A DNA stretch of 64,000 bases from a candidate division WOR-3 bacterium (GCA_026986775.1 JALSNX010000030.1:79483-143482); one strand, 5' to 3'; shown: positions 4,886 through 62,399, counted from the first letter of the stretch. The notes: generated by a model not told the origin, from the sequence alone. Numbers and translations: made by a program.

Positions 4886-4893
4886 AGCACACT

Positions 4894-6897: not shown

Positions 6898-6898
6898 T

Positions 6899-9159: not shown

Positions 9160-9270
9160 CTACTGCACGCCTCCTTCTGAATTTTTGCCCCATTAAATAC
9201 TGGCAATTTAAATGCCAAAGGCTCACATCGCTTAAATACACACATTTCCATACATATCTCCCTCTTAAAC

Positions 9271-9304
9271 TTTCATTTTGAATTTTGAAATTTCATTTTG
9301 AAAT
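9271..9304 (-). promoter_or_regulatory. tandem TTTCA-N3-TGAAA inverted-repeat element about 110 nt upstream of the ankyrin gene start
   Basis: The sequence tttcattttgaattttgaaatttcattttgaaa contains two TTTCATTTTGAA units and an overlapping TGAAATTTCA palindrome. A near-identical element lies at 11878-11911, upstream of the second ankyrin gene. Confidence 0.4.
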
Positions 9305-17766: not shown

Positions 17767-17866
17767 CTGTGACATGTCACAGTTGGTGTGACTTTCCCGT
17801 CACTGTGCTAAATTAAGGCAGCATATATAATTTACTATCATAAGTGTGACATCAAAGGTGTGACAT
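17767..17866 (+). promoter_or_regulatory. cluster of GTGACAT-type sites: perfect 16-bp palindrome CTGTGACATGTCACAG, inverted repeat TGTGA-N8-TCACT and two direct GTGTGACAT repeats (candidate UAS / operator)
   Basis: The palindrome lies at 17767-17782, directly after the stop of the previous gene. gTGTGActttcccgTCACt lies at 17786-17804. GTGTGACAT occurs at 17844-17852 and 17858-17866. The whole cluster sits about 50-150 nt upstream of a sigma-54 promoter. A similar cluster is present upstream of the 28252 gene. Confidence 0.5.
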
Positions 17867-17914
17867 TCTGACCTTTCTGAACCCTTTCTTTGGTAATATC
17901 ACCATAACTCAAAA

Positions 17915-17929
17915 TGGCACTTAAATTGC
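17915..17929 (+). promoter_or_regulatory. sigma-54 (RpoN) -24/-12 promoter, TGGCAC-N5-TTGC
   Basis: tggcacttaaattgc matches the TGGCACG-N4-TTGC consensus at every conserved position. The GC of the -12 element is 31 nt upstream of the ATG at 17960. Confidence 0.7.
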
Positions 17930-17959
17930 CAATAAATACCATGGAGAAAGGGGGGATTT

Positions 17960-20824
17960 ATGAAATATCTGTTATTATTGTGGCTTATTGGATTTTTGAA
18001 TGCACAGGGTTATGAAGATATTGTGATAAAGGACACGATAGGATTAATAAGGGAACTTCCCAGAAGGGGAAAAGGATATAGCGTATGTATTGATACTGGA
18101 GGCAATTATGTATTCGCAGGTTATGCTGAAGAGCCGTATGATGCGTGGCTGGTGAAGTACAACTCTCAATTGCGTGATACTGTATGGATGCGGTTTTATG
18201 GGGGAGACGGGGATGATAGAATATACGATATGGCAATAGACAGCATGGGAAGTTATGTTTTGGTTGGTTATACCGAATCTTATGGTGCAGGCGGAAAGGA
18301 TGTGTGGATTTTAAAGATTGATCCTGAGAATGGTGATACGATATGGACGGATGTACTGGGTGGTGGAAATGATGACATTGCGTATGGAATAACTGTTGAC
18401 AGGGATGGGAACTATGTTATTACGGGTGAAACAAAATCATATGGCGATGATAATGGAGATTGTTTTATCCTGAAGATGAGGCCGAATAAGGACGCAATAT
18501 GGTTTAGAAGATACGGAACAGATCTGGAAGATGGCGGTTATGATATTGCCGTTGATACATCTGGAAATTATGTTGTGGCAGGACTTTATAATTTTGCATG
18601 GGAAAGTTCTTGGGGTGATGTATGGGTTTTGAAAATAGAATCTGATAGCGGTGATACTATATGGACACACAATTATGGTGATTCACAGGGTCAGATAGGT
18701 TATGGAATAGTGGTTGATGATAGTAACAGGTATGTTGTATCCGGGAAAACTTATCTTCCCGGGGCCAATGACAATGTATGGGTATTAAGGATTGATTCAC
18801 AGACAGGAGGACTGTTATGGGAGAGAAATTATGGTGCAGATGGAGGTGAAAGGGGATACAGTATTGTGCAGGATGTTGATGGGTTTTATATCATTGCCGG
18901 TTTTACTGCATCTTTCGGAGAGGGAGGACTTGATGCATGGGTTGTGAAAATAAGCCCTTCCTCCGGTGATACGGTGTGGACACATACGTATGGAACGGAA
19001 GATGACGATAGGGCAGAGGATATAATAGTGGTAAATGACAGTCTTTACATGATGTGCGGGTTTGATGCATCCCATTTTACAGCAAGAGAGATTAAAAGCA
19101 GTGATGGAACAGTATCTGATAGCATGGATTTTTCCATAAAACGGCTGGATATGGCCGCACTGGATGATAGAGGCTATGGTATTGCACTGGATTCATCAGG
19201 TTTTTATGTTATTACGGGTTATTCTGGAACCTATGAAACAGGTGAGGATGCATTGATTGTAAAGTATGATCCACAAATACATGACACTGTCTGGGCAAAA
19301 TTATATGGTGGAAGTGGTAATGATGGATGTTACGCCGTGAGTGTGGACAGAATTGGCTACTATGTTCTGGCGGGTTTTACGGAATCAGAAGGTGCCGGGG
19401 GCAAAGACTTCTGGGTTCTAAAGATATCTCCTCTTGATGGTGATACTATATGGACAAGACATTATGGAGGCAGTAGTGATGATGTTGCAAAGGGTATTGC
19501 AATTGATGATGACAACAATTACATTATTGTGGGGTACACAAAGTCTTATGGGGCAGGAGGAGGTGACCTCTGGATTTTAAAGATAAATTCTCAGAATGGG
19601 GATACTATCTGGTCCCGTATTTATGGTGGTAGTGAATTTGAAGGAGGAAATGGTGTTGCTGTGGATACTGCCGGTGATTATATAGTGTGTGGAAATACAT
19701 GGACCTATGACCCTGGAAACCTTGAAAATGTCTGGATCTTGAAAATAAATCATGAAACGGGTGATACCTTATGGACAAAGAGTTATGGGGACGAAGGGGG
19801 GCAGTGCGCTTTTGATGTGATTGTAGATAGAGACGGTAACTATGTTATTTCCGCAAAAACAACTTTTCATTACACGGATGATGTGTGGGTTTTAAAGGTA
19901 AATCCCATAACCGGGGATACATCCTGGACAGTGCATTACGGAACAGATAGAAATGAGAAGGGGTACAGTATCGCACAGGATAGGGAAGGATACTATGTTG
20001 TGGCGGGCTTTACGGACAAAAGGGGCACCAATAATCCGGATTACTATATTGGTAAAATCTCTCCTGATTCCGGAAAGTTGCTTTTTACAAGGAGATTAGG
20101 AGGAAATGGTGTTGACCGTGCGGAAGGAGTAATCGTTGACGATGACAGTTTTTATGTGGTGATTGGTTATTCAAATTCAACGTACAACGGGGATTATGAT
20201 GTTTATCTCGTAAAATACAACCCGTGGGATGAGAATCCACCAGTTATAGATAGTGTGACACGGATTGAAGATGATGATACCTACCCATACGGTCCCTATG
20301 AGATATGGGCTACAATAATGGACTCTTATTCCGGAGTAATTGAAGCGGTTTTACACTGGAAAACCGAACTTGATACATATTACAGGGATGTGGTTATGAC
20401 TGGTACACCATATAGCAAATTCAGGGCAACCATTCCAGAGATATTTACAACCATTGATAGCCTTAAATTGTTTTACTATGTAACAGCGAGAGATGGTGCA
20501 GGCAACGAGGCTGTTTCTGATACCCATGATTTTTATATCATAACAACATCTCATATAAAGGAGAAGCAGAATAACAGTGATATAGTTGTAAAAATGCCCT
20601 CCATTGTCAGAGGGAACAATTTAAAAGTATTGCTTTCCCTTAAAGAAGGCACAGAATACAGTCTGAGTGTGTTTTCAAAAGTTGGCAGGCTTGTTTGGTC
20701 AAAGCATGATGTTTTTACCTTCAAAGAAAATACTTTTCTTATGCCCGAATTTAAAAGAGGCGTTTATTTTCTTGAAATAAGGACCAAAAACAAAAGAAGA
20801 ATAGTGAGGTTTGTTGTAATTTAG
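17960..20824 (+). CDS. secreted T9SS cargo protein: SBBP-like beta-propeller repeats, one ~107-aa pre-CTD domain, T9SS C-terminal sorting domain
   Basis: Signal peptide MKYLLLLWLIGFLNAQG. About 14 repeats of ~47 aa with the pattern D.WxLK.D...GDTxWT..YGG...D.A.xI.VD.DGNYVxxG.T.SYGAGG. The C-terminal ~75 aa (SLSVFSKVGRLVWS...RGVYFLEIRTKNKRRIVRFVVI) fits a type-A Por secretion tail. Confidence 0.85.
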   Translation: MKYLLLLWLIGFLNAQGYEDIVIKDTIGLIRELPRRGKGYSVCIDTGGNYVFAGYAEEPYDAWLVKYNSQLRDTVWMRFYGGDGDDRIYDMAIDSMGSYVLVGYTESYGAGGKDVWILKIDPENGDTIWTDVLGGGNDDIAYGITVDRDGNYVITGETKSYGDDNGDCFILKMRPNKDAIWFRRYGTDLEDGGYDIAVDTSGNYVVAGLYNFAWESSWGDVWVLKIESDSGDTIWTHNYGDSQGQIGYGIVVDDSNRYVVSGKTYLPGANDNVWVLRIDSQTGGLLWERNYGADGGERGYSIVQDVDGFYIIAGFTASFGEGGLDAWVVKISPSSGDTVWTHTYGTEDDDRAEDIIVVNDSLYMMCGFDASHFTAREIKSSDGTVSDSMDFSIKRLDMAALDDRGYGIALDSSGFYVITGYSGTYETGEDALIVKYDPQIHDTVWAKLYGGSGNDGCYAVSVDRIGYYVLAGFTESEGAGGKDFWVLKISPLDGDTIWTRHYGGSSDDVAKGIAIDDDNNYIIVGYTKSYGAGGGDLWILKINSQNGDTIWSRIYGGSEFEGGNGVAVDTAGDYIVCGNTWTYDPGNLENVWILKINHETGDTLWTKSYGDEGGQCAFDVIVDRDGNYVISAKTTFHYTDDVWVLKVNPITGDTSWTVHYGTDRNEKGYSIAQDREGYYVVAGFTDKRGTNNPDYYIGKISPDSGKLLFTRRLGGNGVDRAEGVIVDDDSFYVVIGYSNSTYNGDYDVYLVKYNPWDENPPVIDSVTRIEDDDTYPYGPYEIWATIMDSYSGVIEAVLHWKTELDTYYRDVVMTGTPYSKFRATIPEIFTTIDSLKLFYYVTARDGAGNEAVSDTHDFYIITTSHIKEKQNNSDIVVKMPSIVRGNNLKVLLSLKEGTEYSLSVFSKVGRLVWSKHDVFTFKENTFLMPEFKRGVYFLEIRTKNKRRIVRFVVI

Positions 20825-20842
20825 AAAACAAGGGAGGTTTTT

Positions 20843-23800
20843 ATGAAAAGGTTAATTGTAATACTCTTCATGGTATCACTACTCAAAGCCCAGAACTTCG
20901 GGGATGTTATCCTTGAGGATACCTTTGGGCTATATACTCCGGGTTCCGGGAATGGGGTAGCATGGGATGATCATGATAACACGGTAATCATAGCAGGTTA
21001 TAAAAGGGCTCATGGTTCGGCTGTAAAAAAAGGATGGCTTATTAAATATGACCCGTTAAGTGATGATACGATCTGGAGCAGGTTCTATGGCAATTATAAG
21101 TATGACTTTTTCAACGATGTGGCTTATGATCCTTCGGGGTATTATGTGGCAGTGGGTGCTTCAGCTACATCTTCAAGTGTTGATTTCTGGATTTTGAAAC
21201 TGACTACTGATGGAAATGTTGAATGGCAGGGAATATACGGGAATCCTTCGCTTTATGATGAAGCAAAGGCAGTTACGCTTGATAGTGCTGGTGATTATGT
21301 TGTGGTGGGATATGAAAGAGATTCAGACGGTGTAGATAAAGCGGCGATTTTAAAGATAGATGCTAACACTAATGATACTGTGTGGACAAGAGTTTACAAT
21401 ACACCGGACACGAGCCGTCTTTATGATGTTTTCATTGACCCCAATGGATATTATGTAGGGGTTGGAGAGATTTACGAGGCAGGATACGGATGGAAAATGG
21501 CGCTTTGGGTGATAGCACCTAACAATGGTGACATTGTGGGCGGAGATGAATACGGCACAAGTGGGAGCAATCACAGGGGCCGCTGTGGCCTTATGAGTTC
21601 TGATAACAACTTCATTATTGCAGGCTATACGGATGTAAATGGCGACAAAGACTATGAAATTTTGAAAATAAAATATTCCGACTTTAGTGTTATATGGGAT
21701 AGCACTTATGCTATCAGCGGAGATCAGGAGGCATGGGAGATAACGAGAATAAATGAGGATGTTTATGTTGGAGGGTACTCTTCGGAAAAAGGAAATAAAG
21801 ATGGCTTTATGATGGTAATAGACGATGGATTTGGCAGAGTTGTAGATATGGACCTTAATGGTTTATCTGATGTTGATGACTGGGAAAAAAGTGTCGTCGT
21901 GTATCAGGATACCATCCTCAGTGTGGGTGGAAGCGAAAATGAGCATCTTCTTACACATATAAGGCATTCCCAGAATATCAGAGACAGTCATCTAAAAGAC
22001 CTGTCTCTGCGTATAGGTTATGAGGATAGAGCATATGCCATTGCCATTGATTCTTCTGGAAATTACATTATAGTGGGAAATACCCATTCGCCCGATGATG
22101 CAGACCACTGGCAGATACTGGCTGTAAAATACGACCCTGTACAGGATAGAGTTTTATGGTGGAAAGTTTACAGTCAGAGATGGGGGGACAGTAAAGCCAA
22201 TAAAGTTATTGTTGATAGAGACGGATATTATGCTATAGCGGGTTATACTGTAAACTCTTCGGGAAATAAAGACGTATGGGTTTTGAAACTCAATCCCAAT
22301 ACGGGTGATACTGTGTGGACAGGGGTCTTTGGTGGTGACAGTGACGAAGTTGCAATGGACATAATAGAGGATTTAAACGGTGATTATGCAGTTGCAGGTT
22401 ATACTACATCTTATGGTGCAGGCCGGGAGGATGGCTGGCTTTTGGTGCTTAATGCTTCAACGGGAGATACTCTTTATACAAAAACATACGGTGGTTCCGA
22501 GTATGATGTATTTAACGCAATAGCAGAGGATAATGGTTATTACATTCTGGCAGGTGTATCTTCCGAACTGCACGGGTGGGGTGATGACTGGATTTTAAAG
22601 GTTGATGCTCAAAATGGGGATACTGTGTGGCAAAGATACTATGGGGACCAAGAGGGTCAGATTGCCTATGATGTTATTGTGGATAGAGACGGTAACTATG
22701 TGGTAGGTGGTAAAACATATACAAATTCCACCCAAGATGATGTCTGGGTTTTAAAGATAGAGAGCGATAGCGGTGACACAATATGGACAAAGTCCTACGG
22801 AGGCTCAGATTCAGAAAGAGGCTTCAGCATAAGAGAGGATAAGGAGGGCTTTTATGTGATAGCAGGTTTCACAAGGTCATATGGTGCAGGCTCGTCAGAT
22901 TACTGGGCTTTAAAACTTGACCCCGAAAATGGTGCTACGCTGGGCCAAAAAACCTTCGGTGGTACAGGGGATGACATGGCAGAGTGTGTATCAGTGGATG
23001 ACAGCAACCATTATGTCATAACAGGTTTCTCCAATTCCACCACTACAGGTGGTTATGATTTTTACACCGTAAAAATATATCAGGGCGATAACCTCCCGCC
23101 AGTGTTTGATTCAATAACGCAACTTCCTAATGACACAACCCTGCCATTCGGGCCCTATCAGGTGGATGTTAAAATAACGGATAATCTTTCGGGGGTTGAC
23201 AGAGGCAGGCTGTACTGGAAGTCATCCGAAGATGCTGATTTTTCCTACAGTTCTTTGACATACAATACTAACAACTGGTGGGGTGCAAGTATTTCGGAGA
23301 TAAACATTACAGGAGATAGTGCCCTCGTCTATTATTATGTTGATGCTTATGATTCCGCAGGAAATTATGGAGTATCGGATACTCTCAGTTTCTGGGTCAT
23401 AAAGCCCGACACGGAGCCACCTTTAATAGATTCTCTTACACAGGTGGATAAAGACACAACCATTCCTCATGGCCCTTATGAAGTAAGGGTAAAGGCATGG
23501 GATGAATATAGGGGCGTAAACAATGTTCGTCTTTACTGGAAGGATGAGGCATCAAGTACATTTACGGAGAGTTTCATGGACAGTCTCGGTGGTGACTGGT
23601 GGGTAGATTCCATACCGGAGCAGGTATTAAACAACGACAGCACGGTGATTTACTACTATGTTATAGCAGAGGACAATGCTGGCAATACGAGTTATTCGGA
23701 TACCATTTCATTTCGGGTAATAGACCCTGACACAACGGTGCCTCAAATAGATTCATTAACACAACTTGAAAAAGACACCACCATACCGCATGGACCCTAC

Positions 23801-26800
23801 GAGGTTATGGTGAAGGCATGGGATAATTATAAAGGCATGGGCAATGTTGAGTTCTACTGGAAGAGCGCAGGAGATACTGTATTCACCGAGAGTTTCATGG
23901 ACAGTCTCGGTGGTGACTGGCGGATAGATTCCATACCGGAGCAGGTATTAAACAACGACAGCACAGTTATTTACTACTATGTTATAGCAGAGGACAATGC
24001 AGGCAATACGACTTATTCAGATACCCTTTCATTCTGGGTAATAGACCCGGATACAACTATACCTCTTGTGGATAATCTCACACAACTTGAAAAAGATACA
24101 ACCATACCGCATGGCCCCTATGAAATCAAGGTGGAGGGCTATGACAATTACAAGGGCCTTAATAGTGTAAAACTTTACTGGCGAAGAAATACAGATACTG
24201 TTTTTAATGAAAGTTCCATGATTGATTATGATTCAACACATTACTGGGTAGACTCTATACCTGAACAGGTACTTAATAACGATAGTGTTGAGATTTATTA
24301 CTATGTAATGGCGGAGGATGTGGGTGGCAACCGTGCGTACACGGATACCCTCTCTTTCTGGGTAATAGACCCTGACACAACGGTGCCTCAAATAGATTCA
24401 TTAACACAACTTGAAAACGACACCACCATACCGCATGGACCCTACGAGGTTAAGATAAAGGCATGGGATGATTATAAGGGTATGGGCAATATGAAGTTTT
24501 ACTGCAAGAGCGCGGAGGATACTGTATTCACAGAGAGTTTCATGGATAGTCTTGGTGGTAACTGGTGGGTGGATACGATACCGGAAGAGGTATTAAACAA
24601 CGACAGCACAGAGATTTATTACTATGTTATAGCAGAAGACAATGCGGGCAATACGAGTTATTCGGACACCCTCTCTTTCTGGGTAATAGACCCCGACACA
24701 ACAGTGCCAGAGATAGATTCATTAACGCAAATTGAAAAAGACACCACCATACCGCATGGACCCTACGAGGTTAAGGTGAAGGCATGGGACGATTATAAAG
24801 GCATATCAAATGTTAAGTTCTACTGGAAAAATGATGCATCTGGAACATTTACGGAGAGTTTCATGGACAGTCTCGGTGGTAATTGGTGGGTGGATTCCAT
24901 ACCTGAGCAGGTATTAAACAACGACAGCACAATAATTTATTACTATGTTGTAGCCGAAGATATAGGCGGCAATATTACCTGTTCGGATACCTTGAGTTTC
25001 TGGGTAATAGACCCCGACACCTTACCACCTGAAATTGACTCACTCACGAAGGTTTTAAGCGATACTACCTTACCTTTTGGACCCTATGAGGTTAAGGTGA
25101 AGTCATGGGATGAGTATGGTAGTATTCAGGATGTAAAATTCTACTGGAAAAACGATACAATGTCTGATTTCACAGTGGGGAATATGGCATATCTGGGTGG
25201 GGATTGGTGGGTAGATTCTATACCACAGCAGGAATTTGCCGCCGACAGTATGTCTATTCTTTACTATGTGGTATCAGAGGATAGTGCAGGCAATTCAACC
25301 ATAACAGATACCATGAGTTTCTGGATGGTAAAGCCCGACACGGAGCCACCTTTAATAGATTCTCTCACGCAGGTGGATAAAGACACGACAATACCTCATG
25401 GTCCTTATGAAATAAGGGTAAAGGCATGGGATGAGTACAGGGGCGTAAGCAATGTTCGTCTTTACTGGAAGGATGACACATCAAGTACATTTACGGAGAG
25501 TTTCATGGACAGTCTCGGTGGTGACTGGTGGATAGATTCCATACCGGAGCAGATATTAAACAACGACAGCACAGTTATTTATTACTATGTTATAGCCGAG
25601 GACAATGCCGGTAATACGAGTTATTCGGATACCATTTCATTCTGGGTAGTAGACCCTGATACAACAGTACCACAGATAGATTCAGTGACACAGCTTGAAA
25701 GAGACAATAACCCACCTTACGGGCCATATGATGTATGGAGCAAGGTAAAAGATGAATACAGGGGACTTGCTGATGTTGAACTCTACTGGAAAAAGGAATC
25801 CCAGCCGGCATTCATACAGGTTTCTATGTCAGGGACTTCAGATGACTGGTGGTACGGTAGTATACCCGAGCAGACGCTTGATACTGATAGCATAAGAATT
25901 GTTTACTATGTAAAAGCAACCGATCTGGGAGGAAATACTTCATATTCTGATACTTTGAGTTTCTACATAGTAAAACCCGATACCATGGCTCCTCAGATAG
26001 ATTCCCTTACACAGGTTGATAACGACTCAACCGCTCCTTATGGTCCCTATGAAGTCAGAGTGAAGGTGACAGACCTTTACAAGAAAGCAGGAAGTCTATT
26101 TGGTAAAGGTGTGTTAAAAGACATAAAGGACAAGGAGACATCACAAGTGAAACTCTACTGGAAACTGGAGACAGAGGCCGTTTTCAACGAAAACAGTATG
26201 GCTTATCTTGGTAACAACTGGTGGATAGACAGCATTCCAGAGGAGAGTTTCAGCACAGATAGCGTAAGAGTTCTTTATTATGTGAGTGCCATGGATGATG
26301 CCGGTAATACTTCATATTCGGATACCCTGTCATTCTGGCTTATAAAACTTGATACCGTAAAACCTGTAATAGATACGGTTACACAGATTGAAAGGGATTC
26401 GGTGCCTCCTTATGGCCCCTATGAGGTATGGGTAAATGCCACAGATAACAAAGGAGTAAAATACACAAGGCTTTACTGGAAAAGGGCATCTCAGCCGGCA
26501 TTTGTTCAGATTGATATGAACCATGCAGCAGGGAACTGGTGGGTTGATAGTATTCCAGAGCAGACACTCAATCAGGATAGCGTATTGATACTATACTACG
26601 CTGAAGCAGTTGATTCTTCGGGCAATACATGTATTTCGGACACATTGGGGTTCTGGATTGTAAGCCCTGATACAATGCCGCCTGTGATAGATTCCCTTGC
26701 TCAGATTGAAAATGATACAATGCCACCCTATGGCCCTTATGAAGTTAGAGTAAAAGTTACAGATAGTAGAAAAGGACAGGTTGTTTTCGGCATTTATAAA

Positions 26801-28009: not shown

Positions 28010-28024
28010 GGAAAACTAAGCAAA

Positions 28025-28052
28025 CAGAGCCCCCATATAAGGGGGCTCTTTA
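28025..28052 (+). terminator. intrinsic terminator candidate after the 2388-aa gene
   Basis: agagccccc-atataa-gggggctct hairpin followed by TTTACTGTTTTA. Confidence 0.55.
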
Positions 28053-28060
28053 CTGTTTTA

Positions 28061-28149
28061 TGACACATTGCTGTGACATGAATGGTCACAGTTTAACATG
28101 TTGTTATGTAAGGAGTTTAATTCTGGGGTGTGACATGGAGTTATGACAT
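28061..28149 (+). promoter_or_regulatory. second cluster of GTGACAT-type sites (inverted repeat CTGTGAC-N7-GTCACAG; direct GTGTGACATG / ATGACAT)
   Basis: The sequence tgacacattgCTGTGACatgaatgGTCACAG lies at 28061-28091. The sequence GTGTGACATGgagttATGACAT lies at 28128-28149. These share their half-site with the 17767-17866 cluster. The cluster sits about 60-150 nt upstream of a sigma-54-like promoter. Confidence 0.5.
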
Positions 28150-28210
28150 TTTGAGTATTGATTTTATTGGTTTTAAAGGTGTTGGTTGTAAATCAATAAC
28201 TTATGTACTA

Positions 28211-28225
28211 TGGCTTGAAAATTGC
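28211..28225 (+). promoter_or_regulatory. sigma-54-type -24/-12 promoter candidate, TGGCTT-N5-TTGC
   Basis: tggcttgaaaattgc has GG and GC at exactly the consensus spacing, with two mismatches in the -24 hexamer. The GC is 27 nt upstream of the ATG at 28252, which has an AAAGGAGG RBS. Confidence 0.5.
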
Positions 28226-28251
28226 CGTAATACTGCAAAAGGAGGTTTTTT

Positions 28252-34200: not shown

Positions 34201-35802
34201 GCAGGGTGGGGTAATGGGATGGTTGCGATTTTAAAAGAAAATAACAGTGATATTGACCTTTACATCACTGAATTGCATTCATCTTCAGTTGTGAAATCCA
34301 TTGACATAGGAGATATGGACAGGGATGGCACAAACGATGTTTATGTTAATACTTACGGAACATCGGCCTACCTGAATGATATCCATTATTCTGATACAGG
34401 CTATGTGAAATCAAATATATTCTCTCTTGGAAGTGCAGCGGATATTGGAAAAATAGGGGATATAAACAAAGATGGAAATAGCGAAATTGCAGTTGCCAAT
34501 CACGCTTATCTTTATCTCGGAAGTTACAACAGCGGTTCCTGGAACCTTGACACGGTGATGTCTTCTGGAGGCTCTTACATATTCAGGACTGCGATATTCA
34601 CGGACTTTAAAAATACAGGGAGCAATGACCTTATTGTATCTCACTCAAGCCATCGTCTTTTAAGAGTTGTATCTCATGGTGCAGATTCTTTTGAAATAGA
34701 TACGCTTGTTAGTTTCAGCGATGCAGAACCCATGGATATGACTGCCTGTGACCTTGATAAAGATGGTGAGGTGGAAGTATATGCAGTAAATGGTTCTGGC
34801 AGGATTTTTAGAATAGCATATGTGCATGACACCCTGCCTCCTTCCATGGTAAACATTGTATATCCACAAAACAATACCTGGTTTACAGCAGTGCCTGACA
34901 GTTTCCTATTTATCTGGAACAGCGTAAGTAAGATTGTGAATACCAGAAGGAATAGTATAAAATTTGCTAAATTCACCTTTATGGATTATCCGGATGAAAA
35001 AGGGGTGACACCCGTTAACTATATTGTGGAAATTGCAAGAGACTCTTTATTTGACACCATAACCATGATTGATACCACCTCTGATACAGTATATGTTATT
35101 GCCAAAAAATCTCCTCTTGGAGAGGAAAATTACTTTAGAGTCAGGGCATTTGACCTTGCCGGAAATGAAGGTCCGTACAGTGAGGTTGTAAGATTTGGAA
35201 TTGACAGTATTGTGCCTGTTATTGATTCTGTTACCATACTATCAGATACCACTTACGAGGGACCATTCAATATAGCCATAGGTGCCCATGATGTGCCATC
35301 GGGAATTGATTCTGTTATTCTTTTCTACAGGAGAATGGAGGATACAGCGTGGATAATGGCTCTGGCGGTGCGTGATACACAGGATGTTTACATTGCCACA
35401 ATTCCCGAGGTGAATCTGCAGAACGACTCCGTTAAATACTATATTAGTGTTTCTGATTATGCACATCTTTCTGACACTGCGCCAGCGGGTGCACCTTATG
35501 TTTACTATGAATTTATTGCATCGGGTATAGGTGAAACAAACAGGATAACCCGCTTTGAGATGAATGTTCCTGTGGTATCTGAAAACACGGTGAGATTCAG
35601 TCTAACTGTGCCGGAAAAACAGAGAATAGGTCTGAATATATACGATATACAGGGGAGGAAGGTTATTACCGTGTTGAACAGGAGGCTCTTGAGAGGAAAA
35701 TATACATTCAGTGTCGCCAATCTGAAAAGAGGGGTGTACATTTATCATCTCAGATACGGGAACCGCAGGTTTAATGGCAAATTTATCGTAGTGGGTAAAT
35801 AA
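28252..35802 (+). CDS. giant (2516 aa) T9SS cargo protein: N-terminal propeller-like repeats, four [IPT/TIG-like plus FG-GAP repeat block] modules, one ~107-aa pre-CTD domain, T9SS C-terminal domain
   Basis: Signal peptide MRRFVLAILLSMGFLLAAG. About 25 integrin-alpha-like FG-GAP motifs (GDADNDGRIELYAGG, GDLDKDGHVELYAG, ADVDNDGFNEIYTYG, CDLDKDGEVEVYAVNG and others). Four IPT-like segments (e.g. PLRISGFVPRVIPLSTTRKIYVYGTGFSG). The C-terminus VRFSLTVPEKQRIGLNIYDIQGRKVITV...KRGVYIYHLRYGNRRFNGKFIVVGK matches a Por secretion tail. Confidence 0.85.
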   Translation: MRRFVLAILLSMGFLLAAGESDIMWQQTFGSDTDDVFYSVSVWDSTPYYYIGGATMAGGTNYDYWILALDPGNSSPVWEYTFGAGGHEQAYGISNGYAPGYGGFIATTGYTYSYGNGQNDLMSLAMTAGGSFLDTMLIGGASYDVGYSVFAGEDGTYVDAGRTHSYSGDGDMIVTKYILADGHIIDTIWSQVFHASDSFDVATSVIRYQDVDIVGGYTNGTGNYDGIILVLSDSSGERVADYEFRGSGNDYIKALTVDRDGNIIGAGYSTTDSHGGDDVWIFKMAPDGTVLWDKKYGGPLDDRANSVFIDSNGNVVIGGYTESYGQGNEDCFILSVNLVDGKPNWYRVYGGSGTDILYGSTLGNKGEGVFVGKTSSFGAGSYDGWIITMNLDVTPLRISGFVPRVIPLSTTRKIYVYGTGFSGYDAGEININFVDASGVVQAAVHPDEVISDDELVATVNLSGIPTGSYSVYIDAGGIVTTDTLKGVVYVINQGADEKYLSYVNVGSTGPIGTMASGDADNDGRIELYAGGGYYLGSTLYYPLMKISGSGGGLSVDTIWSIRTGARAIVISDVDMDGKNEMYIGYGDFSSGTVSRLRWNGTSWTEDTVLNTDYVIMGLDAGSIYGQSKRSLYAVSYDSTFYEITKTASGYSKDTFMVSGYGAFIDVKLGDLERDGKVKAYVSTASGKILEIKRDSYGNFVYTTISESLIKNIGTMGRLYITDADNNGYEELYASSVVGVYDDIFDLKITYNSGAFVFDTIGREFIDLRTQIIVEDLNGDGKVNLYGTGWYHGFYKEPLEDGSWACGVGSVYNATMEPGQAAGYVDLDGSGNLTIFAGGAGMLYRLVPQNTAPQFKTLEVFKYFPQTAPENKDFKLVVYGRGLNNAQEVRLEGDAGSFSGTIDSRYYPRIVVSFNGMPEGHYNLLVVSASSTDTIRDAVCINKSTYYPDGTAHIRIDTMFSTPSGVPLYSLVKGDLDKDGHVELYAGSAGKIYKIYKDPVADSVNIEDIGLTFSYDVRTLLYGDVDNSGEKKLFYRDSMDMGVIYYDGSYHKVSFHKYPNNASGYLTDNINLVDLNGNGFNELVNMSYNGLLNLFEIYQDSFVLSNTKRIFTSNSFYTDVDYGAFVGAPDNMELYVTGTDACSGSYCDGKIKRIKYNYDLWQVIDVYSNTEPYTITLSPMKVLADDTGNDELFFFDMADTAVYRMTYGGSGYLSTGVHTTLESELIFDRADLDNDGTVEYWGIGDYYLREFLLTGSSFTTVDSVYLPDVNDIAGFDLDGDNKLEMYAITSYGKVLKIHKVFKKKLRVRKTDPVIFSRASEDSLITIFGGGFTLFDKDSLNVNLIDKNGNSVMVLNPDTVMSYTRLSLHLPVSAINPGWYDMVISYDTIKSDTLKDAVFISGEPLKHYIYRVDTIGRIASSLRWYITKADMDGDGRMEYYVHDDGHIYKITYNYGSHAWSISTIYTGNLYVSSLVAGDMDHDGKMELYFSPFATTPTPVYCIKMEADTYRVDSISYFSSGAKIGIGDADNDGEDELLGYSVHGVLNVLNFRDSTWERKTYTIESVAATSDIVVADVDNDGFNEIYTYGAPSGQTDAGLIKITLAPYLSSEYVYVDYNIAVGGIKIYDIDGDGQEELYTGSYGSDGKTTIYLFRYLNSGYYSSEVMKNEGLAGDIGVGDLDNDGKNEIAAGFYSLLEMVKENNDYKRIITGIDTIVGILPASINDTTRLDMLVTTRSGYLVHISQEPLPIDSAVSVNGLLTSIIPVGDSLITVLYGKNLNNVQNIYVEKSQGSYQKEATILEVSSGGNYAKIVIPPLDTAGYYNVIVHGNGDDTLYSGLLANNIYSETDNGIVEIDTLKDIGGRKHKDTYYYMSITSVDLDKDGKKEVYVAGDSLWTVDYVGDTFVVNSIMDIPGVANCITYGRFMKDTVSLFVGTTSGEIYELSPNDTGFTILKVFDLSMAGLSSSITNGIKIMDVDNDKNNELIAGWGNGMVAILKENNSDIDLYITELHSSSVVKSIDIGDMDRDGTNDVYVNTYGTSAYLNDIHYSDTGYVKSNIFSLGSAADIGKIGDINKDGNSEIAVANHAYLYLGSYNSGSWNLDTVMSSGGSYIFRTAIFTDFKNTGSNDLIVSHSSHRLLRVVSHGADSFEIDTLVSFSDAEPMDMTACDLDKDGEVEVYAVNGSGRIFRIAYVHDTLPPSMVNIVYPQNNTWFTAVPDSFLFIWNSVSKIVNTRRNSIKFAKFTFMDYPDEKGVTPVNYIVEIARDSLFDTITMIDTTSDTVYVIAKKSPLGEENYFRVRAFDLAGNEGPYSEVVRFGIDSIVPVIDSVTILSDTTYEGPFNIAIGAHDVPSGIDSVILFYRRMEDTAWIMALAVRDTQDVYIATIPEVNLQNDSVKYYISVSDYAHLSDTAPAGAPYVYYEFIASGIGETNRITRFEMNVPVVSENTVRFSLTVPEKQRIGLNIYDIQGRKVITVLNRRLLRGKYTFSVANLKRGVYIYHLRYGNRRFNGKFIVVGK

Positions 35803-35803
35803 A

Positions 35804-36028
35804 ATGCAGAACCTCGTTGTAAAGGTCAGAGAGGGAGAGATTGTATTTAAAAGCGCCGTCCTGAAAGGTGCCGACATTAAGATTTACAGGGAGGATGGGG
35901 AAATGGTATTTGCAAGGGAGAACCATCCCATAGACCACCTCACTGTGAAGAATCTGAAGAAGGGTGTGTATAAATACACAATAAACTCAGGCGGGCAATC
36001 TCTTTCAGGGAGGGTGGTGGTGATATAA
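35804..36028 (+). CDS. orphan T9SS C-terminal-domain-like small ORF (74 aa) with no signal peptide
   Basis: The ATG lies 2 nt after the giant gene's TAA, in a different frame. The sequence VVKVREGEIVFKSAVLKGADIKIYREDGEMVF...KNLKKGVYKYTINSGGQSLSGRVVVI has the strand pattern and terminal hydrophobic residues of a Por secretion tail. There is no obvious RBS. Confidence 0.4.
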   Translation: MQNLVVKVREGEIVFKSAVLKGADIKIYREDGEMVFARENHPIDHLTVKNLKKGVYKYTINSGGQSLSGRVVVI

Positions 36029-36034
36029 ATTTAT

Positions 36035-36094
36035 GGGGCCCTCCGGCTTCCCCCCACACGATACCCATCTTTCGGAGGGCCCTTCTTTTTTATT
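36035..36094. terminator. bidirectional intrinsic terminator between convergent genes
   Basis: ggggccctccg...cggagggccc forms a 10-bp GC stem with a long loop. It is followed by TTCTTTTTTATT on the plus strand and by an A/T-rich run on the minus strand. It sits between the stops of the 35804 ORF and the sigma-54 activator gene. Confidence 0.6.
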
Positions 36095-37931
36095 ATAATT
36101 TATCTTTTTTTATGTCGTATTTTTCCATTATTCTGTAAAGATGTCTTCTTGATATACCCAACTTCTCTGCTGCCTTTGTTATATTAAAGTTTGTTTCTCT
36201 TAAAACCCTTTTCACCACCTCTGGATTGTTGTAGTCTCTATCTTTCTGTACATTTCTCAGCTCTTCAGGAAGATGGTGGCTCTTTATAATTTTTTCTCTG
36301 GCAGAGATTACCGCCGCTCTCGTGATGATATTTTCTAATTCCCGAATATTTCCCGGAAAGTCATACGATAGGAGTAAAGATATTGCATCCTGTGAGAGCC
36401 TTTTGTCAGGTGCTATGTTTTTCAGGAAGTGTCTTGCAAGCACAGGTATATCCTCTTTTCTTTGCCTGAGAGGCGGAAGGTAAATCTGGAAAACATTGAG
36501 CCTGTAATACAAATCTTCCCTGAAATAGCCTTTATTTAATAACTCTTTTAGGGGTCGGCTTGTTGCACCGATAATGCGTATATCTACCCTTTTTGGAGCG
36601 GGACTGCCGAGAACCTCAATCTCTTTAAATTGTATGAGTCGCAACAGTTTAGCCTGAATTTCAAGAGGCAGTTCTGCAAGTTCGTCCAGAAATAGTGTCC
36701 CACCATCAGCCATTTCAATTTTACCCTTTTTATCCTTATAGGCCCCGCTGAATGCACCCTTTTTGTAACCAAATAACTCGGCCTCAAATAATTCCTTAGG
36801 TATTGTGGCACAGTTAATGACGACAAAAGGTCCATCTTTTCTTTTGCTATTCTTATGAATTGCCTTTGCTATAAGTTCCTTACCTGTTCCACTTTCGCCA
36901 ACTAAAAGACACGGTACATCTGTTGGAGCCACTTTTGTTATTGACTCAAGGATTTCAACAAATTTCTCACTTTCTCCTATAAGTCCGGAAAAGTCATAGT
37001 GTTCCTTTAAATAGGCCAATCTCTCACGGACTTTTTTGGGATAAACAATACTTCTTGTAAGAACGGCGCTTATTTCACTGGATAGATACTCTGCCATTTT
37101 CAGGTGTGTTTTTTGAAATATGCCTTCCATTGTCCTGTTTTCAAGGTATATGACTGCCAGGAGGTTGTTTTCTTCCATGAGTGGAAAAGCCAGAACTGAC
37201 CGGATATTAAGTGACATTATACTCGTAAACGCTCCCCATGTGGGGTCCTCCACCGCATTTGAGATGATTAGAGGCTCTCTGGATTCTATAACTTTGGTGA
37301 TGATTGATCTGGGCAGTGGGTCATGAGTGGCTATATCCTCTGTGAGACCATGATAGTAAACAGGCTGGTATTCTCCGTTTAGACTTACCTTTACAATTAC
37401 CGCTCTTTCTGCTCCCGTAAGGTCTACAATGTTTTCAAATATAAATGATAAGAGGTGTTCATTATCCAGTTTGTCTATAACCTCAGTCAGGTTATAGAGA
37501 AATTTATACATAGCAAGTTCCTGCTTTAATTCCTCATGTTCATCCAAAAGAGCAATAATCTCATCTATAACTCCTGAGTACTCTTTTTTCTCGCTCCTGA
37601 GCTGGCACAGAAAATCCTTAACATTCTGTATGCTCCTGGGGTTTACATCTTCAGGAATATCTAGGCTGAATTCAAAGCTAACAGGCCCAAATCCGATTAT
37701 ATCATGGTCATTTAGCAAAACCTCGGTTGACACCGGGTTACCATTTACTGTGGTGCCGTAAGTGGAATTTAAGTCCCGCAAAAACCATTTATTGCCCTTT
37801 TTCAGGATTTCAGCATGATTTCTGGATATATATGAATTTTGAATTACAATATCTGCATCCTCTGACCTTCCTACTACAACCTTATCCTTATCAATGTTGT
37901 AAAGAGTGTCTTTTCCCTTAAGATATGGCAT
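36093..37931 (-). CDS. sigma-54-dependent transcriptional activator (enhancer-binding protein) with N-terminal FHA domain and central GAF domain
   Basis: FHA signature VVVGRSEDADIVIQNSYISRNHAEI...YGTTVNG. A GAF-like region follows. The AAA+ sigma-54 interaction domain has Walker A GESGTGKE and GAFSGA (the GAFTGA loop variant). C-terminal Fis-type HTH KAAEKLGISRRHLYRIMEKY. The ATG overlaps the kinase gene's stop (TAATG). Confidence 0.85.
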   Translation of the reverse strand: MPYLKGKDTLYNIDKDKVVVGRSEDADIVIQNSYISRNHAEILKKGNKWFLRDLNSTYGTTVNGNPVSTEVLLNDHDIIGFGPVSFEFSLDIPEDVNPRSIQNVKDFLCQLRSEKKEYSGVIDEIIALLDEHEELKQELAMYKFLYNLTEVIDKLDNEHLLSFIFENIVDLTGAERAVIVKVSLNGEYQPVYYHGLTEDIATHDPLPRSIITKVIESREPLIISNAVEDPTWGAFTSIMSLNIRSVLAFPLMEENNLLAVIYLENRTMEGIFQKTHLKMAEYLSSEISAVLTRSIVYPKKVRERLAYLKEHYDFSGLIGESEKFVEILESITKVAPTDVPCLLVGESGTGKELIAKAIHKNSKRKDGPFVVINCATIPKELFEAELFGYKKGAFSGAYKDKKGKIEMADGGTLFLDELAELPLEIQAKLLRLIQFKEIEVLGSPAPKRVDIRIIGATSRPLKELLNKGYFREDLYYRLNVFQIYLPPLRQRKEDIPVLARHFLKNIAPDKRLSQDAISLLLSYDFPGNIRELENIITRAAVISAREKIIKSHHLPEELRNVQKDRDYNNPEVVKRVLRETNFNITKAAEKLGISRRHLYRIMEKYDIKKDKL

Positions 37932-40426
37932 TATAGTACCACCGCTTTAATGTGTATTTTGCTACCTTTGCCACTTATTTGTTCCTTCCTCCCTATTTTA
38001 CGGTATATTAAATAAAGGTAATGTTGCGTTCTCCATAACTGTATCTTTGAAAGGATGCTGTTTTGTTCTTTTTCTATTTCTGAAATGGATTTAATGAGTA
38101 TCCTTCTGGCTTCTTCATACTTGCCCTGTCTATAAAGATAGGAACCCAGAAGGTCCGGGTATTTTTTTATAATCGTCGTATCCACCTGATCAAGACGGTT
38201 TAAATCAATATAAACAGCACATGCAGGGTAGTTCTCATCTACTATAAGTTTTGGATGCTTCCTCTTTAGTAATTGTACTTTTGAAAGTGTACTATCTGGT
38301 TCACCGATAATATAGAACAAAAGGGATGAAAAATAAATATAAAAGGCATCATTTTTCTTCGCATAGTCATTATAAAGAGAAAGTGCTTCCTTGAAGTTTC
38401 CGCTCATGGCACTGGACATCATACTGTAAAAGTAGGCCCACTGGTCACTGCTTAGATAGTATGCCTTTTCAAAAACATTCTGAGCTTTTATGTATTCATC
38501 TTTGTTGAAATACAGAAATCCCAGTCTGAGATACGGTGCTGCATAGCCTGTGTCAATTCTGGCTGCTCTTTCAAAGTCCTTTATAGCAGCATTAACTTCA
38601 TTGGCTTCGTTTTCAATAATACCTCTGTAAAGATATAAAGATGCGTAAACGGGGTACAGGAAGTCCTCATAAGGCCGGTCCGTTATTTTAAGAATTTTGA
38701 TAGCCTCAAGTATTTTTCCGTTTTTTGAAAGCGTTGATGCCATTTTCATTTTGTTGATCAAACTGTGTCCGGTATTGAAAATTTCAGTGTGATGTACAGG
38801 CAGGATGGTGTCTTTGAGAAGCACACCAAGATTACTTATATAAAATATTTTGCCGTTTCGTGTGGTTATGCTGTAGATGGCAGGTTTAATTTTTTTAATT
38901 TCATCCACAGGGTTAGAACCCGGAAGTATGGAGTAAAACAGAGTACCATATTCTTCTGAAATGTCTTTTCCGAACCATGGGGGTGACTGTGCATCAAAAC
39001 CACGACCGTTTAAGGCAAAGAAAACAGGTTTCATACCTAAGTCATTGTTTATTCCACCGGCGACAATATCCTTTGTGCCGTCGTTATTTACATCGTCAAA
39101 GACAGCATCAAATATCCATCCGGAGTGCCAGTATTGGCGTAATCTGGCGTCTTTTTTATTGGGGCAAAGGTTTCTTATTATATATGGAAACCATTTTCCA
39201 CATCTTTCTCCCACCAGTATGCAGCCAGAAGAATCGTTCATAAATTTTAACATATCAACCATAAATACAGCCGGTTTATCGTAGATGTTCCGTGCTGGAT
39301 TGCCAAAATATCTTTTAAATTTACCGGTATAATCCAGTACATAGACTGAACCTGTATCTTTTCCTGCAACTTTTTCTTTGTTAGAGGTGGTTTTTAAGTA
39401 TCCTGTCCCAACGATAACCTCGTTTTTACCGTCATTATTTATGTCCTTAAGAAGATAGGCTGTTATATCACTTCCGGCTTTAAATGTAAATAGTTTTCTT
39501 CCTGATTTATTAAATACTTTGACCTCTGGGCCATTAATATGTACTTTTGCTGGATTCTTATCATTATATCTGCTCAGTATTAGAAATACAACTGACAGTA
39601 TAAGAGCAAAAAATACCAGTCCATACTTTATACCGGACAGCATTGGATACCAGATTTTAACTTTCTTTCGGGTTATCCAGTCGTTTCTCAGTTCCTGTGC
39701 GTCCTTGTATCTGTATCGTGGTGTTTTCAAGAGACACTTCTGAATTATACCTGATATGTGGGATGGAATTCTGGTATTTATTTTATCAGGTGGTTTTGGG
39801 TTCTTGTTTATTATGTTGTACATGGTCTGGGATATGGTATCTTTTCTAAAAGGATGGGTGCCTGTAAAGAGCTCATAGAGTATAACTCCAAGAGAAAATA
39901 TATCTGAAGATTTTGTGGGTTTTTCTCCTTTTAATTCTTCCGGAGATATGTATGCAGGTGTACCTGCCAATTCACCTGTTTTAGTTAGACCTGTCCCCTC
40001 ATCACGGGCAAGTCCAAAGTCCGTAAGTTTTACTTTCAAATCTTTTGTTAAAAGAATATTCTCCGGTTTTAAATCTTTGTGCATTATCCCCTTTTTATGA
40101 GATGCTACCAGGGCTTCTATAATCTGAGTTGCAATTTTTATCCTGTCTTTTAAGGAAAGGCCAGAAATTTGAAAGTTAAGAGGCTTTCCATCAACGTATT
40201 CAGTAAGCACATAGGTTTTGCCATCAATAGTGCCTGTTTCGTATATTTTAACTATATTGGGGTGATTGAGTTTTCTTGCCAGTTCGTAAGCTTTCAGGAA
40301 TTTTGAATATTTTAACAGTTTAAGGGCATATTTTTTTTGCGTTTTAATGTCCTCTACGAGGTAGACCTCCGCAGACCCGCCCTCGCCTAACTTACGAATT
40401 ATCCGAAATCTTCCCCCCAGTATCAC
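37931..40426 (-). CDS. transmembrane Ser/Thr protein kinase with extracytoplasmic FG-GAP/propeller-like region and C-terminal TPR repeats
   Basis: Kinase motifs GEGGSAEVY, YALKLLK, HKDLKPENILL, DFGLA, GTPAYISPE. TM helix YGLVFFALILSVVFLIL. FG-GAP-like DINNDGKNEVIVGTG and DDVNNDGTKDIVAGG. Several TPR-like repeats. The apparent start is a GTG with a weak RBS, so the start is uncertain. Confidence 0.8.
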   Translation of the reverse strand: MILGGRFRIIRKLGEGGSAEVYLVEDIKTQKKYALKLLKYSKFLKAYELARKLNHPNIVKIYETGTIDGKTYVLTEYVDGKPLNFQISGLSLKDRIKIATQIIEALVASHKKGIMHKDLKPENILLTKDLKVKLTDFGLARDEGTGLTKTGELAGTPAYISPEELKGEKPTKSSDIFSLGVILYELFTGTHPFRKDTISQTMYNIINKNPKPPDKINTRIPSHISGIIQKCLLKTPRYRYKDAQELRNDWITRKKVKIWYPMLSGIKYGLVFFALILSVVFLILSRYNDKNPAKVHINGPEVKVFNKSGRKLFTFKAGSDITAYLLKDINNDGKNEVIVGTGYLKTTSNKEKVAGKDTGSVYVLDYTGKFKRYFGNPARNIYDKPAVFMVDMLKFMNDSSGCILVGERCGKWFPYIIRNLCPNKKDARLRQYWHSGWIFDAVFDDVNNDGTKDIVAGGINNDLGMKPVFFALNGRGFDAQSPPWFGKDISEEYGTLFYSILPGSNPVDEIKKIKPAIYSITTRNGKIFYISNLGVLLKDTILPVHHTEIFNTGHSLINKMKMASTLSKNGKILEAIKILKITDRPYEDFLYPVYASLYLYRGIIENEANEVNAAIKDFERAARIDTGYAAPYLRLGFLYFNKDEYIKAQNVFEKAYYLSSDQWAYFYSMMSSAMSGNFKEALSLYNDYAKKNDAFYIYFSSLLFYIIGEPDSTLSKVQLLKRKHPKLIVDENYPACAVYIDLNRLDQVDTTIIKKYPDLLGSYLYRQGKYEEARRILIKSISEIEKEQNSILSKIQLWRTQHYLYLIYRKIGRKEQISGKGSKIHIKAVVL

Positions 40427-40480
40427 ACGGATATTATAAAGACTTTCAGAGAGTTTATGAAGCGGTTATTTTTACTATTC

Positions 40481-45383: not shown

Positions 45384-45458
45384 GGCCTCGTCGTCTAGCC
45401 AGGTCTAGGACACCGGCCTTTCACGCCGGCGACAGGGGTTCGAATCCCCTCGAGGCCA
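45384..45458 (+). tRNA. tRNA-Glu (anticodon UUC), CCA not encoded
   Basis: GGCCTCG acceptor stem paired with CGAGGCC. The D-arm TCGTCTAGCCAGGTCTAGGAC and anticodon stem-loop CCGGCCTTTCACGCCGG are nearly identical to E. coli tRNA-Glu. T-arm GGGGTTCGAATCCCC. Confidence 0.9.
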
Positions 45459-62389: not shown

Positions 62390-62399
62390 GAGGAGAAAA

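Follow-up and report, generated by a model that had tools for sequence, protein, structure and literature searches.

A candidate regulatory cassette joining a receptor Ser/Thr kinase, an FHA-GAF sigma-54 activator and giant type IX secretion cargo genes in a WOR-3-like bacterium

Introduction

How might an uncultured bacterium control genes for secreted surface proteins that exceed two thousand residues? The question is raised by a 64,000-nucleotide (nt) stretch from a candidate division WOR-3 bacterium (GCA_026986775.1, JALSNX010000030.1:79483-143482; the whole stretch is hereafter called the window), in which giant genes for predicted cargo of the type IX secretion system (T9SS) converge on a gene pair encoding a transmembrane (TM) Ser/Thr kinase and an enhancer-binding protein with FHA and GAF domains. 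A first-pass annotation of this DNA had proposed that the kinase signals through the FHA domain of the activator to sigma-54 promoters of T9SS cargo genes. Following this proposal computationally, we read the locus as a dedicated signalling cassette of a WOR-3-like bacterium of the Fibrobacteres-Chlorobi-Bacteroidetes (FCB) group, and we favour the full mechanism with moderate confidence. We hold with considerably more assurance, on good if indirect evidence, the part in which the activator would act through TGTGACAT boxes on sigma-54 promoters. The wiring of boxes to promoters in the earlier proposal held up, through recurrence of the layout in two related loci (L003 and L030), the presence of the gene pair in all five lineages compared and an invariant DNA-recognition helix; its extension to T9SS cargo in general did not, the predicted targets being these giant genes.

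Results

Promoters and upstream boxes

The giant genes form two same-strand transcription units (17960-20824 plus 20843-28009, and 28252-35802 plus 35804-36028), the first of which is read as one operon because its 2388-aa gene starts 18 nt past the end of its 954-aa gene. An intrinsic terminator hairpin (28026-28049, + strand; 9-bp stem with 7 G-C pairs and a T-rich tail) divides this operon from the promoter of the second unit. Each unit is preceded by a -24/-12 element of the sigma-54 type, and both elements were located where the first-pass annotation had placed them. P1 (TGGCACTTAAATTGC, 17915-17929, +) matches TGGCAC-N5-TTGC exactly, and 31 nt separate its end from the ATG at 17960; P2 (TGGCTTGAAAATTGC, 28211-28225, +), which precedes the 2516-aa gene, ends 27 nt before the ATG at 28252. 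No sigma-70-like site was found on the coding (+) strand of either intergenic region. Window-wide, TGGC-N7-TTGC occurs four times against 1.45 expected; three of the four matches are intergenic, in the right orientation and 27-43 nt from a start codon, in a window of which intergenic DNA makes up 3.8%. Counts of such short patterns are modestly above those in shuffled sequence, and it is their placement, rather than their number, that is informative. Another exact TGGCAC-N5-TTGC (44904-44918, -) lies within a 320-aa open reading frame (ORF; 44258-45220), is absent from the syntenic region of L003 and was set aside as probably a chance match. As a separate observation made by eye, the P2 region contains a perfect match (AATCAATAACTTA, 28191-28203, +) to the IHF consensus WATCAANNNNTTR in the interval between the proximal boxes and the -24 element; the match in the orthologous L003 promoter, also judged by eye, is only partial.

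Upstream of both promoters lie repeated boxes with a highly non-random distribution. Counting both strands, the 8-mer TGTGACAT is present six times in the 64 kb, and all six copies fall within the P1 and P2 intergenic regions, which together span 435 bp or 0.7% of the window (Poisson P~6e-12 for this confinement). The same regions hold 8 of the 20 window copies of TGTGAC (P~3e-12). The boxes had previously been described as clusters of GTGACAT palindromes. They are real, and their true repeat unit is the 8-mer TGTGACAT, not the 7-mer GTGACAT, for which the window-wide count (11 versus 8.5 expected) reveals no enrichment; moreover, only one perfect palindrome (CTGTGACATGTCACAG, 17767-17782) is found among the window boxes, and the proximal elements are direct tandems.

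At P1, the distal boxes (17767-17803, +) comprise this palindrome and TGTGACTT-N4-GTCAC (17787-17803), beginning 147 to 128 nt 5' of the T of TGGC, and they are followed by the proximal tandem TGTGACAT-N6-TGTGACAT (17845-17866, +), the second box of which ends 48 nt before TGGC. The five-promoter alignment described below has this tandem block as its conserved core. At P2, the distal boxes (28060-28091, +) are ATGACACA (28060-28067) and the inverted repeat CTGTGACAT-N5-GTCACAG (28071-28091), and the proximal tandem TGTGACAT-N5-TATGACAT (28129-28149, +), whose second box ends 61 nt before TGGC, aligns with the tandem TGTGACAT-N5-TGTGACAT of L003. The common layout is a direct tandem with a 13-14 nt period, starting at -70/-56 (P1) and -82/-69 (P2) from the T of TGGC, with distal inverted copies at about -128 to -151 in both promoters.

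The regulator pair

The kinase gene (37931-40426, -) and the activator gene (36093-37931, -) lie past a GC-rich hairpin (GGGCCCTCCG ... CGGAGGGCCC followed by a T-run, 36036-36091; found by eye) at the cargo/regulator boundary, a probable bidirectional terminator between convergent units. The pair, reported earlier as standing immediately downstream of the giant genes, does adjoin them; it is convergent with the cargo units and on the opposite strand, not downstream on the same strand. The existence of the pair itself is borne out by matches to Pkinase, FHA, GAF, Sigma54_activat and HTH_8 and by frames that share base 37931, where the kinase stop codon overlaps the activator start by 1 nt. Just 5' of the kinase start is a sigma-70-like promoter candidate (TTCATA-N17-TATAAT, 10/12 matches; 40433-40461, -). 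Neither TGTGACAT boxes nor a -24/-12 site were found in this regulator promoter region, so the regulators are apparently not autoregulated.

The activator is a 612-aa enhancer-binding protein in which every domain scores above its Pfam cut-off, as the first-pass annotation had expected of such a profile search: FHA (residues 18-82, 74 bits), GAF_2 (GAF at 158-291, 39.9 bits), the AAA+ domain Sigma54_activat (317-483, 226.6 bits), the lid AAA_lid_14 (489-565, 81.2 bits) and a Fis-type helix-turn-helix, HTH_8 (572-605, 37.9 bits against a cut-off of 22). The AAA+ match is nearly complete (PF00158, cut-off 20.2 bits, profile positions 1-167 of 168), and both Walker motifs, A (GESGTGKE) and B (LFLDELAEL), occur without variation across the clade. 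The recognition helix LGISRRHLYR[IL]MEKY is likewise unchanged throughout the clade, and distant homologues have another sequence there. In the FHA domain (PF00498, cut-off 20.7 bits), the whole clade keeps G21, R22, S36 and H39, and the closest solved relatives, Mycobacterium tuberculosis FhaA (the closest), GarA and EmbR, bind phosphothreonine (pThr) and are partnered with Ser/Thr kinases.

The 831-aa kinase has the layout of a receptor, with a Hanks kinase domain (residues 8-251), a single TM helix (~262-287) and then a sensor ectodomain made of a beta-propeller (~294-531) and a TPR solenoid (~546-821). Its Pkinase match (PF00069) reaches 178 bits against a cut-off of 31.7, with TPR and weak FG-GAP matches besides, and the motifs GEGGSAEV, YALK (with the catalytic Lys), HKDLKPEN, DFG and SPE are intact. 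AlphaFold models gave a pLDDT of 80.6 for the full-length kinase and, for the ectodomain, a pLDDT of 84.2 and a pTM of 0.82, with fold matches to propellers and TPR proteins. The ectodomain propeller (Beta-prop_CGLA / FG-GAP_3) also occurs fused to histidine-kinase ATPase domains in three other proteins (P0131-P0133), and it appears to be a portable sensor module common to both kinase classes. Two further leads were dropped: BLASTP found no similarity between ectodomain and cargo that could have hinted at self-sensing, and a distant homologue of the ectodomain (P0130, 25% identity) is not encoded beside an activator, so that the kinase family offers no way to widen the pairing.

Conservation across lineages

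Close relatives of the activator fall into four clusters with 44-56% identity, the best-named of them from candidate division WOR-3 metagenome-assembled genomes. In all five lineages (5/5) a co-oriented kinase gene lies directly 5' of the activator gene, with an overlap or a gap of less than 10 nt, and the convergent giant gene with the small ORF behind it is kept in four. The L003 activator is 55% identical to that of the window, and this locus supplies the sole full orthologous promoter, in which the tandem TGTGACAT-N5-TGTGACAT is separated by 60 nt from TGGCATCAAAATTGC, itself ending 29 nt short of the ATG, with a distal ATGTCACA besides. The 2516-aa protein is a colinear orthologue of a 2517-aa protein of L003 with 28.7% identity, while the regulators of the two loci share 51-55%; therefore the control module is more constrained than its target.

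In L003 (19716-19920) the single giant gene comes immediately after an IF-2B-family gene, and in the window (17767-28251) the operon for the 954-aa and 2388-aa proteins, with its own box-promoter module, is placed between the IF-2B-family gene and the giant gene. Because of this arrangement in L003 we regard the operon as an extra unit with its own copy of the control region, which points to duplication of cargo along with its control region.

The most distant orthologue, L030 (activator 44% identical), is missing the giant gene. Two box-plus-promoter modules, carrying the palindrome GTGTGACGTCACAC and the tandem TGTGACAT-N5-TGTGACAT, stand directly after its activator gene and precede a 224-aa CBM96 protein and an insertion-sequence-cut 111-aa gene that weakly resembles the giant proteins. 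Transposase fragments (rve_3, HTH_Tnp_1) occupy L030 13209-14064, right after this 111-aa gene, which is probably what an insertion sequence has left of a larger surface-protein gene. Across the resulting five promoters from three genomes, the box and -24/-12 columns of the alignment are invariant, TGGC-N7-TTGC ends 25-31 nt before the start codon and the boxes stand at fixed distances.

Among loci fetched independently of the pattern, the exact tandem was found in L003 and L030 only, and no TGTGACA was seen near any of five distant FHA-GAF activators. When a metagenome collection was scanned for TGTGACAT-N5/6-TGTGACAT-N40-70-TGGC-N7-TTGC, two matches came back, L034 and L035, which we treated as chance. 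L035 is a 1.7-kb contig without a clear gene. L034 has about 4 kb (3442-7375) of 34% GC with no ORF of at least 80 aa under genetic codes 11, 4 or 25, and is probably eukaryotic or otherwise non-bacterial DNA, unrelated to this locus. The collection evidently does not hold this clade, because the pattern-bearing L030 contig was not returned.

The FHA-GAF-AAA+-HTH architecture makes up much of the homologue list and spans several phyla. When five distant homologues were sampled, a Pkinase gene was found within two genes of the activator in three and none within 6 kb in the other two. One distant FHA-GAF sigma-54 activator (33% identical; L038, 8103-9740) is followed by a gene for a Fasciclin and FG-GAP surface protein, which hints that such activators control surface proteins in other phyla too.

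Cargo proteins

All three large proteins pass the NCBIfam TIGR04183 cut-off of 23 bits for the T9SS type A sorting domain by a narrow margin (23.2 for the 954-aa, 26.7 for the 2388-aa and 25.9 for the 2516-aa protein), in agreement with their earlier assignment as T9SS cargo; their Pfam Por_Secre_tail matches are below threshold. By eye, each has a hydrophobic N-terminus (MKYLLLLWLIGFLNAQ, MKRLIVILFMVSLLKAQ and MRRFVLAILLSMGFLLAAG). The 954-aa secreted protein (17960-20824, +) combines a signal-peptide-like N-terminus with a propeller (PQQ_2, SBBP and delta-60 repeats) and the sorting domain. It is a paralogue of the N-terminus of the 2388-aa giant protein (20843-28009, +; 37.5% identity over 877 aa), which has propeller repeats, Big_3_4 and Big_13 Ig-like domains and the sorting domain. 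Both share N-terminal propeller regions with the 2516-aa giant protein (28252-35802, +), in which a signal-peptide-like N-terminus and N-terminal propeller are followed by many FG-GAP/VCBS-type repeats, TIG and the sorting domain. The cargo look like surface adhesins.

Directly 3' of the giant gene is a 74-aa ORF (35804-36028, +) with a T9SS type A sorting-domain-like sequence only (TIGR04183, 25.3 bits versus 23) and no signal peptide. Such an orphan ORF of 74-78 aa occupies this position in four lineages (orthologues at L003 11884-12111, L029 4714-4944 and L032 3249-3485, all on the - strand), with about 28% identity between them; it might serve as a decoy, as a chaperone or in feedback.

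The proposed link between this control and T9SS cargo stands for the three giant genes. It does not extend to the 1538-aa T9SS cargo gene at 51073, which has a TTGCCA-N17-TATAAT promoter and no -24/-12 site, and one L030 target is the 224-aa CBM96 protein. Because the promoter of the 1538-aa gene is sigma-70-like, control appears to be locus-specific and not general to T9SS cargo.

Neighbouring features

A third -24/-12 site (TGGCATTTAAATTGC, 9203-9217, -), near-identical to P1, ends 43 nt before an operon running from 9159 to 89 (-) that encodes ankyrin-repeat, zinc-ribbon and 667-aa FHA-like proteins, two Ser/Thr kinases and a PP2C phosphatase. It is accompanied by only one TGTGACAT-like box (7 of 8 positions) and by two TTCAAAATGAAA repeats upstream (~9270-9300), and homologous kinase/PP2C cassettes (L041 and L042) had no sigma-54 site or boxes at the corresponding position. 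Membership of the third site in the same regulon is unconfirmed. Elsewhere in the window, an Rfam scan gave a tRNA (45384-45458) as its sole match and left the regulatory regions empty, and a GAF-GGDEF diguanylate cyclase gene (57238-58299, +) is followed by an Rnf-type cluster (RnfC, RnfD and others; 58377-63621, +).

Discussion

Proposed mechanism and alternatives

In the mechanism that we favour, every biochemical step of which we infer from the features above and from related systems, the kinase and activator genes would be co-transcribed from the sigma-70-type promoter. The Fis-type HTH of the activator would then bind the TGTGACAT boxes, both the tandem that starts 55-82 nt 5' of TGGC and the distal inverted copies around -125 to -150, as their co-conservation suggests. 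An envelope or extracellular cue would activate the kinase, and pThr on the kinase or on the activator would be read by the FHA domain. This reading would lift an inhibition of the AAA+ domain by the N-terminal FHA-GAF region and permit hexamer assembly, with the GAF domain as a possible second, small-molecule input. The passage from cue to kinase to FHA domain is drawn by analogy with the PknH-EmbR pair and with GAF-type activators, and the adjacency in one operon and the domain content of the two proteins likewise suggest phosphosignalling from the kinase to the FHA domain. ATP hydrolysis, together with contact between the GAFSGA loop and sigma-54, would finally open both -24/-12 promoters. 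The predicted output is two units, one for the 954-aa and 2388-aa proteins and one for the 2516-aa protein with the 74-aa orphan sorting-domain ORF, with products carrying Sec-type N-termini and T9SS type A sorting domains.

Several observations weigh against this mechanism. Neither rpoN nor T9SS machinery genes (porK/L/M/N, sprA, porU/V) were detected among the ORFs scanned in the 64-kb window, and the promoter regions come from three genomes only (the window, L003 and L030), because the clade is rare. The kinases of the window and L029 are non-RD (HKD), those of L003, L031 and L030 being HRD. Each of the five orthologues has GAFSGA as its sigma-54 contact loop, versus GAFTGA in all 12 distant FHA-GAF homologues checked; a Thr-to-Ser change in this loop is conservative, and T86S is reportedly tolerated in PspF. 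In the FHA domain, the canonical Asn of S-x-N-G-T is an invariant Tyr in the clade (STYGT, SRYGT or SKYGT), aligned to the Asn of M. tuberculosis FhaA (DLNSTNGTTVN), and this Asn is present in 12 of 12 distant FHA-GAF activators checked. With both substitutions, peptide and sigma-54 interactions could each be altered. Finally, a second operon with two kinases, a PP2C phosphatase and an FHA-like protein lies 27 kb away behind the third -24/-12 site, and because of its proximity the adjacent kinase need not be the sole input.

In one alternative, the activator, boxes and sigma-54 promoters work as proposed and the adjacent kinase is not a phosphorylating on-switch. The FHA domain would instead dock the activator on the autophosphorylated kinase at the membrane, sequestering it as a form of negative control, or read another phosphoprotein that the other kinases and the PP2C of the window give rise to, and in both versions the GAF domain could be the main activating input. 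The Asn-to-Tyr substitution suggests non-canonical peptide recognition, the second kinase operon offers another source of phosphorylation, no kinase gene lies within 6 kb of two of the five distant FHA-GAF activators sampled, and GAF domains are established as governing NifA-, NorR- and FhlA-type activators. Against this, the strict adjacency of the two genes, with overlapping or near-abutting frames in 5/5 lineages, argues for joint action, the sign of which it leaves unfixed. We judge this alternative unlikely, with enough of a chance to be kept in view.

The TGTGAC repeats might instead be sites of another regulator, for example of the CRP/FNR family, with the activator binding elsewhere or not near these genes at all. 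The half-site TGTGA/TCACA does resemble the CRP consensus, TGTGA-N6-TCACA, and inverted copies are present at 17767-17782 and 28071-28091. However, the inverted TGTGA/TCACA halves are separated by 2, 4, 8 or 9 nt and never by 6, and on this half-site spacing we rejected a CRP-type reading of the boxes. In addition, conservation is highest for a direct tandem of 13-14 nt period, the boxes accompany the activator gene even in L030, where the giant gene has been lost, and no CRP-like gene was seen in the conserved neighbourhood, which together make control by another regulator very improbable. It is scarcely credible that the -24/-12 matches and boxes are chance or non-functional and that the giant genes use unrecognised sigma-70-type promoters, since the mildly raised pattern counts and the one exact, unconserved match inside an ORF (44904-44918) are set against five promoters in three genomes that keep the -24/-12 element 25-31 nt from the start and the boxes at fixed distances, the confinement of 6/6 TGTGACAT copies to 0.7% of the window, and a coding strand without a sigma-70-like site in either region.

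Beyond the favoured mechanism, in which the kinase would switch on the activator, the features can be joined into a larger picture. The locus would be the first sequence-readable path from a receptor Hanks kinase through an FHA sigma-54 activator to boxes, promoters and targets. Secretion would feed back on transcription as the propeller/TPR ectodomain monitored the cargo or its ligand, with the orphan ORF taking part, and the FHA Asn-to-Tyr change would be a private recognition code between kinase and activator. Taken as a whole, we consider this picture speculative and rather improbable.

Comparison with known systems

Sigma-54 activators that carry an FHA domain are already known: such enhancer-binding proteins were reportedly described in Myxococcus xanthus by Jelsbak, Givskov and Kaiser in 2005 (PNAS 102:3010; cited in PMC12288465 and PMC4320627), and FHA-type sigma-54 activators are said to have been predicted in Pirellula (planctomycetes) by Studholme and Dixon in 2004 (cited in PMC2754498). 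The architecture is widespread, and even a kinase gene nearby is shared by three of the five distant homologues sampled. The Myxococcus and Pirellula activators have the same N-terminal FHA, sigma-54 AAA+ and C-terminal HTH, with a proposed input from a Hanks kinase rather than a histidine kinase. Here, in contrast, a GAF domain is added, the receptor kinase is encoded in the same operon, boxes, promoters and targets are readable, the phylum is WOR-3-like, and the FHA domain has the Asn-to-Tyr change and the sigma-54 loop the GAFSGA one.

The GAF-AAA+-HTH core is also that of NifA, NorR and FhlA, from which the activator differs by its extra FHA domain and by the box TGTGACAT, the NifA box consensus being TGT-N10-ACA. 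NifA (TIGR01817, 327.7 bits versus a cut-off of 528.85) and NorR (323.8 versus 476) are its best NCBIfam matches, both far below the equivalog cut-offs, and by curated score the activator is not NifA.

The closest validated pairing of a kinase with an FHA activator is PknH-EmbR of M. tuberculosis, in which the genes for a receptor Ser/Thr kinase and an FHA activator lie in one operon, EmbR needs its FHA domain to interact with PknH and to be phosphorylated by it, and the output is cell-envelope genes; phosphorylation of EmbR in vivo is disputed (PMC9239209). The EmbR FHA domain is itself among the solved relatives of the FHA domain described here. EmbR, however, is a SARP/OmpR-type regulator that works with sigma-70 holoenzyme and has its FHA domain at the C-terminus, whereas the present activator has a sigma-54 AAA+ domain and an N-terminal FHA domain.

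In regulon logic, the closest parallel is the PEP-CTERM/EpsH regulon, in which genes for surface proteins with a sorting signal stand behind large intergenic regions in which ~63 nt separate an activator motif from a -24/-12 element of the sigma-54 type. The dedicated regulators of that regulon, PrsK-PrsR-PrsT, comprise a sensor kinase in the membrane, an activator of sigma-54 and a protein with TPRs (Haft et al. 2006, PMC1569441). The corresponding features here are the boxes, a 47-61 nt spacer, the -24/-12 element and a TPR region on the kinase itself. The parts differ: a T9SS type A signal, a Ser/Thr kinase and FHA-GAF in the window, versus PEP-CTERM, a histidine kinase and REC. Against the PrsR model (TIGR02915) the activator scores 326.8 bits versus a cut-off of 502.6, over the AAA+/HTH part only and with no Response_reg match; it is not PrsR, and the likeness is one of logic only.

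In type VI secretion systems, the threonine-phosphorylation pathway PpkA-Fha1-PppA, with its Hanks kinase, FHA protein and PP2C phosphatase, and sigma-54 activators control a secretion-related surface apparatus (PMC10482370). There the FHA protein acts post-translationally on the apparatus and the activator is separate, whereas here FHA domain and activator are one polypeptide with T9SS cargo, not machinery, as predicted targets. In the literature searched we found no report of sigma-54 activators linked to T9SS cargo, and no FHA sigma-54 activator whose partner kinase, DNA site and direct targets have all been established.

Earlier statements of conceptual novelty were overstated; the locus is a new and unusually readable case of an established type of regulator, found in a phylum without cultured members and with predicted targets of a new kind. 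Many sigma-54 activators with an FHA domain occur in Myxococcota, Planctomycetota, Acidobacteriota and further phyla, and this locus is a compact set for reconstitution in vitro: a single kinase and a single activator, two promoters, and an 8-bp box whose layout is fixed. For giant T9SS surface proteins of such a phylum, it is also a first hypothesis on how they are regulated. The parallel with PEP-CTERM suggests a recurring design, in which genes for surface proteins with sorting signals would stay off, behind promoters that depend on an enhancer, until a sensor in the envelope responds.

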